This document shows, one piece after another, positions 17,629 to 55,203 of a DNA stretch of 64,000 nucleotides. The position numbers and the translations under genes are program-made. The notes under the pieces are model-generated. The model was not told where the DNA came from. It made no database searches and saw nothing but the letters and a program-made list of their open reading frames with translations. This stretch comes from a candidate division WOR-3 bacterium (GTDB lineage: Bacteria > Hydrothermota > Tepidihabitantia > B3-TA06). The DNA is taken from NCBI GenBank assembly GCA_965649265.1, contig CBFGKC010000002.1, forward strand, positions 107,100-171,099, read 5' to 3'. How positions within the stretch are numbered: position 1 is the stretch's first letter; each line of letters starts with the position of its first letter.

Positions 17629-17673
17629 GGGGGAGGAGGGGCTGAGGAGGGCTGAGGGGGGCTGAGGAGGGTC
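17629..17673. repeat. (TGAGGRGGGC)n tandem repeat abutting a stop codon
   Basis: About 4 copies; same unit as 231-277. Confidence 0.8.
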
Positions 17674-34982: not shown

Positions 34983-35026
34983 TAGGAGGGCCTGAGGAGG
35001 GCCTGAGGAGGGCTTGAGGAGGGCTT
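34983..35026. repeat. (TGAGGAGGGCY)4 tandem repeat abutting a stop codon
   Basis: Four 11-bp units; variant of the 231/17629 family. Confidence 0.85.
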
Positions 35027-46193: not shown

Positions 46194-46406
46194 ACCTGTT
46201 TCGCGTGTCCAAGGAGAACCCGAGTACGAAGGGAATACACCAACTGAAGCAAAAATTTGCACAAAATGATAAGGGAGGAGGACCCCCTCTCTACTCGTCG
46301 TGCATTAAGATGCGTAGCTGCGATTCTTGAGATCATGAAGGATGGCATTGGATTTGCTTAGTAATAGATTGTAGGGAGATTATCAAAGGCCTTGAAAGGA
46401 GGGGCT

Positions 46407-52103: not shown

Positions 52104-52478
52104 TTAAATGGTTGCAATTGCCGCAATCTCGACCAGCGCACCCTTTGGTAGTCCGGCTGACTGGACGGTGAGCCGGGCGGGGTATGGTGCCGTGAAGAAT
52201 GTCGCGTATATTTCGTTGACCTTTGGGAAGTCTACAAGCGAGGCGAGATGGATATCACATCTCACGATATCGTCCATGGTTGCCCCGGCTTCGTCAAGGA
52301 TAGCCTTGAGATTGGACATGACCTGCCTTGCCTGGGCCTCGACTCCTTCGAGGAGCTTATCTTGCTTGGGGTCAATGCCCAGCTGACCGGCGACGAAAAT
52401 GAGGTTTGCCACCTGCACGGCCTGGCTGTACGGACCTATTGGCAGGGGCGCGTTGTCGGTTCTAATCTCTTTTTTCAT
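52104..52478 (-). CDS. ridA: RidA/YjgF enamine deaminase
   Basis: APLPIGPYSQAV, AGQL, VNEIY, PAR and LPKGALVEI. Confidence 0.93.
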   Translation of the reverse strand: MKKEIRTDNAPLPIGPYSQAVQVANLIFVAGQLGIDPKQDKLLEGVEAQARQVMSNLKAILDEAGATMDDIVRCDIHLASLVDFPKVNEIYATFFTAPYPARLTVQSAGLPKGALVEIAAIATI

Positions 52479-52654
52479 AAATACTTCCTTTCAAATATTT
52501 GATCCTTCACAAGGAGTCCCATGCTTGGAAAGACACGGGCACTCGCATAGTCTAAGGCATAACCCCGGACCTGTCAACCCTTGATGTTGACAAATGTTTC
52601 AAACGAGTTAGTGTTTTAACCTTAAGGGAACGAATCAACAAATTGGAGGTAAGT

Positions 52655-53794
52655 ATGTTTTTATATAACTTGGTTTCATTCTTTTTGTCGGTAGTGGTAA
52701 GCTTGAGCCCTGGGTATTCATCCAAAGACCAGGCTAATAAACTGCTAACCCACGTTTCCCTGGATGTCAAAGCCGCCACTCCGCTATTCTCCGAAACTAC
52801 AACTATTAATGATTCAGGTTTTGTCTGGTTCTTTATTAATTGGGGACGGAACTTATATATAAGTCGTATCAGCCCCAGGGGTGAAATACTTTTGAATAAG
52901 CTCCTCATAGCTCAGATCAATGAGGAATATCCCGAATTGTGGCTTAATGGTCCGATGGCGTGCGACCGCTGGGGCAACGTGTACTGCGGTTACTTCCCCA
53001 GAACGCGCGACAATCATACCTGCCCTCTGCATCTTATTCGCGTGACCCCTGGTGGCCAGGTAAAGGACTACTATCCTTGGCCTGACATTCGTGTTTACAA
53101 CTATATGGAGGTTCTTCCCGGCGATACCTTGTTAGTTGCAGGATTCAGCAGCGATTTCAGCAAGATCAAGGTATATAAAGGCTTACTCGATGAGGAAGGC
53201 ATTATCCCGGTTTTCGAGAAAGACTTCAAGTCAGGGTACAGCTCATTGAACGAAGTGGTATACAGTAAAGCTATGCCGCAAAGCAACACCATGCTTGACT
53301 GGGGCAGAAACTGGGGGCTATACATCATTAGCGACTCTGATTATAACACACCTGTACTTTCTGAGACTTTTAGAATTCAGAGGCTCAACCTGAATCTGGA
53401 CACCGACCATTCTTACGAAGATCTTGGCCTTTATGATTGGAACAAATATACCTGGAGAATTTTCCATAAAACGTGGATTGGAAATGTTACTATCACTCCC
53501 TACAAGAACGGTGGTTACGTGCTCTGTTTGGTTGAACCAATGGATGCTTCGACTACATATATGATTAGATTGGACAGCACCGGTGTGCCCATAGATCCAA
53601 AGACCCTGAGTGACGGAGGCATAAGAAAGCCCATTGCCTTTGACAAACTCCCGGCGTCAGCCAAACCCTACGTGGGTTTCGGGTGGTGGGAAAGCCATCT
53701 TGAAAGGACGAAAAGGGATTCAGCGCACGTTACGTTCTGGGGCGTGGATAGCGAAGGAAACATCTACAACTACCGGAAACTCCAAAAGCTGTAG
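52655..53794 (+). CDS. Hypothetical secreted protein
   Basis: GGAGG plus ATG 52655; hydrophobic N-terminus; own promoter TTGACA-16-TAGTGT; AT-richer than its neighbours. Confidence 0.72.
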   Translation: MFLYNLVSFFLSVVVSLSPGYSSKDQANKLLTHVSLDVKAATPLFSETTTINDSGFVWFFINWGRNLYISRISPRGEILLNKLLIAQINEEYPELWLNGPMACDRWGNVYCGYFPRTRDNHTCPLHLIRVTPGGQVKDYYPWPDIRVYNYMEVLPGDTLLVAGFSSDFSKIKVYKGLLDEEGIIPVFEKDFKSGYSSLNEVVYSKAMPQSNTMLDWGRNWGLYIISDSDYNTPVLSETFRIQRLNLNLDTDHSYEDLGLYDWNKYTWRIFHKTWIGNVTITPYKNGGYVLCLVEPMDASTTYMIRLDSTGVPIDPKTLSDGGIRKPIAFDKLPASAKPYVGFGWWESHLERTKRDSAHVTFWGVDSEGNIYNYRKLQKL

Positions 53795-53837
53795 GGAGAG
53801 GTCCCCCCAAAAGCTACGGGGTAGCTTTTGGGGGCAT

Positions 53838-54011
53838 AAAAGCAGGAGGCGCCTGGTTAGCCAAGCGCCCCATGGTGATTTCCTCCTCCCATCATCTCCT
53901 TTACCTTTCCTCACCCGGTAACACATCGCCCTTTTCAACCTTCTTCAGTGCCCCTAGCACCAAAGAAGCTCTCACCTCCTCCCTTTCTTCCATCTCCCTC
54001 TATGGTGGCAC
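53838..54011 (-). ncRNA. Candidate sigma54-dependent GGA-rich sRNA
   Basis: Nine GGA motifs in a purine-rich tract, followed by the hairpin GGGGCGCTTGG-ctaa-CCAGGCGCCTCC and TGCTTTT. Confidence 0.45.
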
Positions 54012-54021
54012 TTAACTAGTA

Positions 54022-54037
54022 AGCAAGAACCATGCCA
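54022..54037 (-). promoter_or_regulatory. Sigma54 (-24/-12) promoter
   Basis: TGGCATGGTTCTTGCT matches TGGCAY-N5-TTGCW with correct spacing; AT-rich upstream region. Confidence 0.65.
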
Positions 54038-54271
54038 ACTATCGTCCAAAATACGCTTAAGGGACGCTTGCAAATCAAGCCTTTGCGGAGGGGGGAGGAG
54101 GCGGGTCAAAATGATATCATTTTTTTTAACTATGTGTATCAAGGAAATTATACTTTTTGGTAAATGCACTGAACCATCTGGCCGCCGTCAGAAAATACCG
54201 GATAGTGCCACAGGTTATTTTCGATAAGTATGTAAATTCAAAGAAATTGTTAAGCAATTTCTTTGAATTTA

Positions 54272-54311
54272 GGGTCCCCATTAAAATCGCAACGCGATTT
54301 TAATGGGTTTT
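54272..54311. repeat. GGGTCCCC-family hairpin after ptb (may act as terminator)
   Basis: CCCATTAAAATCGC-aac-GCGATTTTAATGGG. Confidence 0.7.
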
Positions 54312-54312
54312 C

Positions 54313-55203
54313 TTAACTTGCTACCGCACCCAGCGCGATTGAGTAGAGCTTGGTCTTGGCGTCGTCCGCGCGTGAGAGCATGAGCACGGGTTTCGAGGCA
54401 CCCGCGACTATTCCACACGCGTTCGCACCGCCCAGGTAGATGAGCCCCTTGGCGAACATATTTCCGGTCGCGATGTCGGGAACGATGAGGACATCTGCTG
54501 CGCCCGCGACCTTGCTCTTGACACCTTTAATCTTGACCGCTTCTTCGGAGACTGCAAGATCGAGCGCGAGAGGACCGTCTACCAGCGCACCCTTTATCTG
54601 ACCTCGCGCGGCCATCTGGGTTATTTCGGCCCATTCTACGGTCTCGGCCATCTTGGGATTCACGACCTCCACGGCGGCCATGAGCGCGACCTTGGGTTCG
54701 GCGATGCCGAGGGACTGCGCGACCGCGACCGCGTTGCAGATGATGTCCAGCTTGGTCGCGAGATCGGGACAGATGTTCATGCCGCCGTCGGATACGAGCA
54801 GCAGACGCCCCAGGTTCGCGGGTTCAACGATGGCGATGTGGGATAGCACCCTGCCCGTGCGTAACCCGCGCTCCTTATCGAGCACGGCTCCGAGAAATTT
54901 TGAAGTCTCGAGGTGCCCTTTCAGAAGGAAGTCGCCGTTAGTGCGGACTTCGTTGACGGCCACGAGTGCCGCCTCTTCGTCGGGGCAGTCGACGACTTCG
55001 AACCCGTCGAGCGCGACCCCTACCTCTGCGGCGGCCTTTTTAATCTTATCCTTCGGCCCGCAAAGTATGCCCTTAGCAATGCCTTCCTTTTGGGCTTCGG
55101 CAAGTGCCTCGAGAGTGACAGGGTCGGCGGCCGCGGCGACAACCGATCGCCGCGGCCCCAAATCACGTGCCTTTTTCTTGAGTTCCTTAAGCGACTTGAT
55201 CAT
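54313..55203 (-). CDS. ptb: Phosphate butyryltransferase/acyltransferase
   Basis: LLKGHLET, GLRTGRVLSH, DGGMNI, DGPLALDLA, VPDIATGN and SRAD. Confidence 0.9.
   Translation of the reverse strand: MIKSLKELKKKARDLGPRRSVVAAAADPVTLEALAEAQKEGIAKGILCGPKDKIKKAAAEVGVALDGFEVVDCPDEEAALVAVNEVRTNGDFLLKGHLETSKFLGAVLDKERGLRTGRVLSHIAIVEPANLGRLLLVSDGGMNICPDLATKLDIICNAVAVAQSLGIAEPKVALMAAVEVVNPKMAETVEWAEITQMAARGQIKGALVDGPLALDLAVSEEAVKIKGVKSKVAGAADVLIVPDIATGNMFAKGLIYLGGANACGIVAGASKPVLMLSRADDAKTKLYSIALGAVAS

Follow-up and report, generated by a model that had tools for sequence, protein, structure and literature searches.

The regulatory RNAs CsrB, CsrC, RsmY, and RsmZ carry a variable number of GGA-containing motifs that resemble the Shine-Dalgarno (SD) sequence, are largely unpaired or lie in loops, differ in copy number between relatives, and are followed by an intrinsic terminator; the motif is of the ANGGA type and is presented preferentially in hairpin loops. 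A similar layout is found in a candidate small RNA (sRNA) gene on the minus strand of a 64-kb stretch of DNA from a candidate division WOR-3 bacterium (contig CBFGKC010000002.1; the whole stretch is hereafter called the window), where a short transcript is predicted between a sigma-54 promoter and a terminator. The locus differs from the CsrB group in its sigma-54 promoter, in having neither CsrA nor an Rfam match, and in its motifs, which contain longer G-runs (AGAGGGAGG, AAGGAGGU) and are not of the ANGGA-in-loop type. A second point of comparison is formed by STAB-SD and other polypurine 5' stabilisers of Bacillus, which precede mRNAs and protect them against RNase J. Like these, the candidate RNA has a 5'-proximal SD-like purine tract that is complementary to the 3' end of 16S rRNA and does not start a gene; unlike these, it has no gene before its terminator, and a STAB-SD function involving RNase J was rejected because that enzyme was not found (see below).

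Other relevant systems are driven by sigma-54 or come from lineages that lack the usual RNA-binding proteins. CrcZ and CrcY of Pseudomonas are Hfq sponges under the control of sigma-54 and CbrB (PMC4063720, in part). They have in common with the present locus a sigma-54 promoter with an upstream activator site (here a candidate), repeated single-stranded motifs, and sequestration, which is proposed here; the locus differs in the absence of Hfq, in its G-rich boxes, and in having no sequence homology to them. Qrr and GlmY/GlmZ are sigma-54-dependent sRNAs of proteobacteria that act by Hfq-dependent pairing or as a RapZ decoy (PMC10162802 and PMC3045617, both in part). They resemble the locus in having an orphan -24/-12 promoter, an upstream activator site about 100 nucleotides (nt) away (a candidate here), and a short terminator-ended RNA (predicted here) without an open reading frame (ORF), and they differ from it in phylum, sequence, and likely partner. 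Lastly, the RbpB-associated sRNAs GibS and FopS belong to Bacteroides, according to the consulted part of PMC11697453, i.e., to a lineage that is also without Hfq and CsrA and relies on small single-RRM proteins with a binding preference for single-stranded stretches; FopS is multicopy whereas the RNA described here is single-copy, and binding by an RRM protein is a proposal in the present case.

Judged by title and abstract, the papers listed on Stahlbacteria deal with genomics, metabolism, taxonomy, or RNA polymerase, and none of them with RNA regulation. In the abstract-level record, the cases listed for sigma-54-dependent G-rich small RNAs were known ones from proteobacteria, e.g., GlmY/GlmZ and Qrr, none of which resembled the present RNA, and no natural ribosome-decoy sRNA was among the matches listed for anti-SD-sequestering sRNAs. 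Sigma-54-driven sRNAs and multi-site sponge RNAs are both known, and the new RNA family would join the two in a phylum that lacks the usual partners. The locus provides an sRNA gene that is conserved and single-copy, whose promoter type is defined and whose anatomy is clearly modular, together with a candidate enhancer box, and it poses the question of what a CsrB-looking, SD-mimicking RNA binds in bacteria without CsrA and Hfq.

Promoter, anatomy, and Shine-Dalgarno mimicry

The RNA unit is conserved at the nucleotide and not at the codon level, and it probably represents a real sigma-54-dependent non-coding RNA. From 5' to 3' it consists of an upstream box, the -24/-12 promoter, a short AU-rich 5' end, a 5' purine box, variable boxes, and a terminator, as follows:

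54126..54158, minus strand: conserved box AAAAAGTATAATTTCCTTGATACACATAGTTAA (the upstream box), which precedes the -24 element by about 90-120 nt
54037-54022, minus strand: near-consensus sigma-54 promoter TGGCATGGTTCTTGCT, with the -24 GG at 54036-54035 and the -12 GC at 54024-54023
53838..54011, minus strand: candidate RNA transcript of about 174 nt, its start predicted from promoter geometry and its end from the terminator
53969..54001, minus strand: 5' purine box (AGAGGGAG...GGGAGGAGGTGAGAG), the best-conserved segment of the RNA
53938..53970, minus strand: internal hairpin with a CUUCUU.../...AAGAAG stem and AGGGG in the loop, from predicted folds
53874..53916, minus strand: 3' purine boxes, from predicted folds
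53838..53873, minus strand: AUG, then the terminator hairpin (53871-53846) and U tract (53841-53838)

The original prediction, which was made from the sequence of the window alone, had described an orphan sigma-54 promoter at 54037-54022 with AT-rich DNA upstream, a purine-rich tract with nine GGA motifs, and a GC hairpin with a U tract at the end, and in these respects it was borne out. The window holds two occurrences of the strict pattern TGGCAY-N5-TTGCW where 0.09 would be expected (standard deviation 0.38; 1 of 100 shuffles reached two), and TGGCAC/T-N5-TTGCT is retained in all homologues. The genome (2.74 Mb in 27 contigs, 96% complete) has an intact rpoN (151 bits, open frame of 456 aa) and nine genes for sigma-54 enhancer-binding proteins, each scoring above 200 bits. 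Strict sigma-54 sites number 29 genome-wide, several of which are followed by an AAGGAGG-type SD and a start codon. The GC content upstream of the promoter is 0.31 at 54105-54270 and 0.41 at 54038-54240, compared with 0.526 for the window, and this AT-rich DNA also holds a 20-nt C-rich tract. The core of the upstream box, TGATAC-N4-RGWYAA, was present in all 15 distinct upstream sequences aligned, with a variant in genus g2 (G002 and G005: GGTGAA, TGTAAA), and it occurs only once in the genome. As it sits where sigma-54 activator sites lie, the box is a candidate enhancer, i.e., an activator-binding site.

Purines make up 72.3% of the 141-nt body of the RNA, and of 273,588 genome windows of the same size 0.022% are at least as rich; G alone accounts for 40%. 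The nine GGA motifs were counted between the expected start at about 54011 and the U tract, and at least nine are found in 0.26% of the 273,588 windows. The sequence AGAGGGAG(G/A) is located 13-25 nt after TTGC in 12 of the 13 distinct sequences listed, as well as in G005, and is replaced by AGGAAAGG in G004. Further boxes, e.g., GGUGAGGAAGGG and GGAGGGAAGGGGAG, vary in number and are separated by U/A-rich linkers. By gain and loss of such boxes the RNA varies in length from about 80 to 180 nt, and the promoter-to-terminator lengths fall into classes (105-112, 128, 134-138, and 200-208 nt) that differ by whole purine modules. Since whole-unit MAFFT alignments misaligned long and short forms, anchored listings were used in their place. 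The internal hairpin is found only in the long form of the window's genus, and all shorter homologues are without that stretch.

In predicted folds the purine boxes are largely unpaired. As to the idea that the GGA motifs might sit in loops, most of them are unpaired, and they are in loops only at the internal hairpin and at a possible loop closed by GGUGA/UCACC. In the latter, pairing of GGTGA (53915-53911) with TCACC (53878-53874) is possible and would close a loop around the last box, GGGAGGAGGA. Such a helix of 4-6 bp shows a correlated change to GGUA/UACC in the short forms, while G006 breaks the pairing (both by eye), so that the helix is weakly indicated. The terminator hairpin has 11 pairs, including 8 GC pairs, and a loop of 4, and is followed by CTGCTTTTAT. 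A terminator scan of the region gave 2 sites against a shuffle mean of 2.1, which is not significant by itself; the weight lies on conservation. Across 12 sequences, 96.2% of the cells of the terminator helix are paired; because the 5' arm is invariant and the 3' arm has only wobble-compatible changes, the 5' arm seems to be constrained in sequence as well as in pairing.

The purine boxes copy the organism's own SD. Its 16S rRNA ends in GGAUCACCUCCUUUCU, and a perfect 9-nt complement of this tail, AGGAGGUGA, lies at 53980-53972 within the 5' purine box, a length of upstream complementarity (at least 9 nt) found for only 51 of 1914 long ORFs. The RNA body contains 19 five-mers complementary to the 16S tail, a number reached by 1 of 116,434 genome windows, and it is the most SD-dense stretch of the genome. 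Perfect matches of at least 7 nt are present in 12 of the 14 distinct homologues, and an AUG that abuts the hairpin follows the purine tract at 5-9 nt in all 14 sequences with the 3' module. GGAGG is found upstream in 928 of 2985 crude ORF calls, so the organism clearly uses SD (the ORF set for the SD and target scans is a home-made gene call). Read as sequence, the RNA is a string of strong ribosome-binding-site copies.

Several observations concern other sigma-54 sites and the DNA next to the promoter. A look-alike of the upstream box, TTATACTTTTAGATAAC, is located on contig C26, 77 nt before another sigma-54 promoter, and is suggestive only; that promoter drives an ORF of 127 aa whose N-terminus is hydrophobic, with an ORF of 510 aa next in line. 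The second strict sigma-54 promoter of the window, TGGCATTGGATTTGCT (46343-46358, plus strand), lies just 5' of a 514-aa ORF without a Pfam match and a 460-aa PEGA/PQQ-like ORF. Surface or secreted proteins may be under sigma-54 control in the source organism. At C4:137123 and C7:162136, sigma-54 promoters beside activator genes are followed by near-identical leaders (…GCGAGCGGTTGAAGAGAA…), which may be paralogous sigma-54-driven leaders or further small RNAs. The C-rich tract mentioned above (CCGCCTCCTCCCCCCTCCGC, 54104-54085, minus strand) shares the strand of the sigma-54 promoter, which it precedes by 50-80 nt, and is complementary to the purine boxes of the RNA. Read-through of ptb transcripts, should it occur, could allow the tract to pair with the RNA; the sister genome and the other relatives do not have it.

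The genome also contains short tandem arrays whose repeated unit is G-rich and 9-11 nt long (CTGAGGAGGG, with variants). A regular expression gave 54 of them, about three quarters of which lie outside ORF calls of at least 150 aa. Examples are found at 244-275, 17629-17671, and 34990-35023 of the window, and at C6:24463-24524 and C9:26990-27097. Some directly adjoin TTGACA-type promoters, and others have on their flanks shared dispersed repeats that contain a GCAGAAT/ATTCTGC hairpin; arrays of period 10 have TGA in all frames of the G strand. A stricter pattern gave 36 matches in this genome and 0-6 in ten relatives, which marks the arrays as a species-specific expansion. A link between the RNA and the (CTGAGGAGGG)n arrays was rejected, given that relatives which also carry the RNA have only 0-6 matches.

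Conservation, distribution, and non-coding nature

The element was found in 10 of the 11 genomes of the family, in all four genera, between ptb and the RidA operon; in the eleventh (G007), the contig stops at the ptb stop codon. With BLAST, the region was matched in 6 of the 10 other genomes belonging to the family, and 30 genomes from other families of the class gave no match. All six matches have TGGCAC-N5-TTGCT, a purine-rich body, and the same terminator arm, and all but G004 have the 5' box AGAGGGAG. A covariance model of the 3' module scored 60-77 bits in 8 of the 11 family genomes, and across 132 genomes of the class it gave no strong match outside the family. Three weak class-level matches and a second weak match in the source genome turned out to be ordinary terminators behind protein genes, without a sigma-54 promoter. 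In both genomes of genus g2, upstream box, promoter, and 5' purine box are found 3' of ptb, but the 3' end of the element is a different one. The recurrence of these three parts in relatives makes the observation more than chance.

Wider scans gave few further copies. Out of 32 pattern matches in metagenomes, 8 were true copies (sigma-54 promoter by pattern, 5' box by eye), and among 91 matches of the combined promoter and 5'-box pattern in species-representative genomes, only 2 had the box and a purine body, both from Candidatus Stahlbacteria. The same group provides the closest matches to the ptb of the window, at 80% identity. A pattern for the terminator arm was too unspecific to be used (at least 120 matches in unrelated GC-rich genomes).

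The neighbourhood of the RNA gene in the window is as follows:

54313-55203, minus strand: ptb/pta-like phosphate acetyl/butyryl transferase (PF01515, 1e-46), the upstream neighbour and syntenic anchor in all loci
~54310-54275 and 54268-54232, minus strand: two hairpins 3' of the ptb stop codon
53803..53834, no strand: second GC hairpin in the interval between the RNA and the convergent ORF, read from sequence
52643-53794, plus strand: convergent 383-aa ORF from the ORF list, whose 3' end faces the RNA terminator
52577-52549, minus strand: RidA sigma-70-type promoter TTGACA-N17-TAGACT
52104-52478, minus strand: RidA (PF01042), the downstream same-strand neighbour

The gene order TMEM260-like, ptb, RNA, optional convergent ORF, RidA, TPR protein, glycosyltransferase was kept in 9 of 9 loci tested. 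In two inspected genomes of neighbouring families, ptb is directly followed by RidA, for which reason the RNA gene looks like an insertion between the two in the family ancestor. The site holds no protein gene in the relatives, so that a deletion scar, the outcome named by the original prediction as fatal to its reading, is not what the comparison points to.

No ORF is shared among the homologues, and a coding gene at the locus was rejected for lack of a conserved frame. The statement that only micro-ORFs are present, the longest after the promoter being of 30 aa, needs amending: the 30-aa ORF exists (53993-53901), but a TTG frame of 72 aa (53938-53720), which runs through both terminator hairpins, is longer. 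In the sister genome the 30-aa ORF lies in a different frame, and it is otherwise absent. A single start codon is common to the homologues, namely the AUG next to the terminator hairpin; in every homologue the MGRL... frame that it opens reaches the U tract without a stop codon, and the later residues of this frame vary freely. In the comparison of nucleotide with codon conservation that the original prediction had proposed, the promoter and the RNA are kept at the level of nucleotides.

Possible partners and modes of action

Neither of the two partners that the original prediction had suggested, CsrA and Hfq, was detected. At E<=0.01, none of the 11 genomes of the family gave a match to CsrA (PF02599) or to Hfq (PF17209), and the same searches did match the controls (for CsrA, E. 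coli, B. subtilis, and T. maritima). No Rfam family, including CsrB, CsrC, Rsm, and CrcZ, reached its gathering score in the window or in the loci of six relatives, and at E<=10 the window gave nothing meaningful, the best being a CsrC fragment of 10.6 bits against a gathering score of 61. Hfq binds through its distal face to an A-rich motif of the AANAANAA type, and by reading, the RNA body contains no motif of this type. Of the original assignment, an unannotated, separately promoted, and terminator-ended non-coding RNA with purine repeats stands, and membership of the CsrB/CrcZ type falls away with CsrA, Hfq, and the Rfam match. If the RNA is a sponge, its partner is something other than CsrA or Hfq.

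The preferred reading is that the RNA is a decoy for an SD-recognising protein, which is held tentatively and is somewhat more likely wrong than right. An enhancer-binding protein, probably at the box about 100 nt upstream, would switch on the sigma-54 promoter, and a transcript without a conserved reading frame would end at the intrinsic terminator. The working part would be a row of SD copies, in the form of purine boxes that are largely unpaired and number from two to about six. The induced RNA would serve as a decoy whose boxes bind a factor that is otherwise located on the ribosome-binding regions of mRNAs, thereby changing translation. A decoy is favoured because a variable number of boxes with a conserved box sequence is what sponge RNAs show, and because the lineage is without CsrA and Hfq, the factor would most likely be one of its small RRM-type RNA-binding proteins.

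RRM_1 genes are present in all 11 family genomes. The source genome has three tandem paralogous single-RRM genes (C3:12623-14369) that encode proteins of about 110-125 aa with Gly/Arg-rich tails, and it also encodes KhpA. As a side observation, each of the tandem RRM genes is preceded by a TTGACA/TATAAT promoter of its own and carries a short hairpin in its leader. Bacteroides is likewise without Hfq and CsrA and has RRM-1 proteins (PMC13370968, in part). Its single-RRM protein RbpB bound a threefold repeat of the purine-rich GUAGGAUA as a probe and not a C/U-rich one (bioRxiv 10.1101/2021.04.27.441718, in part), and binds single-stranded parts of sRNAs in vivo (PMC11697453, in the part consulted). 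The RRM partner is proposed purely by analogy with RbpB; if it is true, the RbpB paradigm of Bacteroides extends to another phylum.

A number of points weigh against the decoy or against parts of it. The start, end, and expression of the RNA are all read from sequence, and we infer its transcription and its ends, its action in trans and as a decoy, and its partner alike. None of the nine activator genes lies inside the window; on the plus strand (54126-54154), the upstream box resembles a divergent sigma-70 promoter, TTAACT-17-TATACT. No double-sided covariation was found in the terminator helix among the 12 sequences, and complementarity to 16S amounts to only 5-6 nt in L007 and L008. RRM is a proposed partner, and its genes are widespread and not confined to genomes with the RNA; the leaders of the RRM genes in the source genome contain no purine box. 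Finally, the best-conserved part of the RNA is the single 5'-terminal box, which is more typical of a pairing seed than of a sponge.

This last point leads to a serious if doubtful alternative, namely a base-pairing sRNA of which the 5' purine box is the seed for CU-rich stretches of RNA. Its targets could be SD-masking anti-SD-like segments in mRNA leaders, with activation of translation as a result, or C-rich sRNAs. Across the four genera, g2 with its differing 3' module included, no other segment of the RNA is as well conserved as the 5' box AGAGGGAG(G/A), located at about +3 to +25; the boxes are unpaired in folds, and no known sponge partner is encoded. Target scans spoke against a pairing function, with the limitation that they are crude and weak evidence, having no accessibility model and relying on the gene call described above. 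A genome-wide ungapped complementarity scan gave no outstanding site (best non-self score 44.5, within a continuum of 37-43), and many of its top 40 sites were antisense to ORF calls or intergenic. An RNAduplex scan without length limits produced meaningless full-length duplexes and was rejected. The complement of the g3 seed, at up to 2 mismatches in 11 genomes, gave counts like those of a backwards control, and neither of two seed loci inspected was a plausible target, the site in G004 being a C-rich/G-rich inverted repeat without a promoter and that in G006 looking coding. Moreover, the variable number of boxes is unusual for seed-type sRNAs. An ordinary base-pairing sRNA would make this a routine new RNA family.

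It is improbable that the RNA is directed at the ribosome itself, with its boxes binding the anti-SD tail of 16S rRNA in free 30S subunits. The outcome would be either titration of initiation-competent subunits or protection of the RNA in the manner of a 5' SD-like stabiliser. The density of 16S-tail complements, the highest in the genome, would suit such a role, as would the perfect matches of 7-9 nt in 12 of 14 homologues, the AUG at 5-9 nt from the purine tract in the 14 sequences with the 3' module, and the use of SD by the organism. Any purine-rich RNA, however, scores well against a pyrimidine tail, titration of ribosomes would need a very high copy number, and a search with TIGR00649 for RNase J, against which a stabiliser would protect, did not find it (best score 20.3 bits, cut-off 400). 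A 30S partner, if true, would be a new regulatory principle. An equally improbable extension is a sigma-54-induced 'ribosome-binding-site decoy', in which tandem maximal-strength SD copies and a dead-end AUG clamped by a hairpin bind either the 30S anti-SD or an SD-reading RRM protein and retune initiation genome-wide; it would represent a global post-transcriptional switch of a kind undescribed in bacteria.

Very little speaks for a cis-acting leader or attenuator of the RidA-TPR-glycosyltransferase operon, or for a functionless remnant, and both are considered highly unlikely. The RNA and RidA are on the same strand, with only 300-700 nt of non-coding DNA between them in L010, L013, L016, and L142. 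A TTGACA-N16/17-TAnAnT promoter lies directly 5' of RidA in the window and in these four loci (the stretch in L142 being identical to that in L013), the RNA ends in a strong terminator followed by further hairpins, and a convergent gene (383 aa in the window) lies between the RNA and RidA in the window, G001, and G008. A leader function is unlikely because RidA has its own promoter and the convergent gene intervenes in some genomes, and a remnant is at odds with the retention of promoter, upstream box, and 5' box across four genera. The sponge of CsrA or Hfq of the CsrB/RsmY or CrcZ type, for which the sigma-54 promoter, nine GGA motifs, terminator, and modular boxes had spoken, is hardly credible, since a family without CsrA and Hfq rules out its strict form unless a very divergent homologue escapes the Pfam models, and the score of the CsrC fragment and boxes that are G-rich and not A-rich also count against it.

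Hairpins around the RNA gene

The GC hairpin at 53803-53834 is likely a two-way terminator serving the RNA and the convergent ORF. A 14-pair hairpin with TTTT at 54277-54307 (plus strand) is located about 120 nt 3' of the plus-strand promoter-like sequence in the upstream box. The two together could give rise to a divergent transcript of about 150 nt towards the ptb stop codon; the hairpins downstream of the promoter-like sequence are not kept in relatives. In genus g3, a single type of GC hairpin (…GGGGACCCCG…) recurs in the interval from the RNA terminator to RidA in the loci L013 and L016 and resembles repetitive extragenic palindromic (REP) elements.

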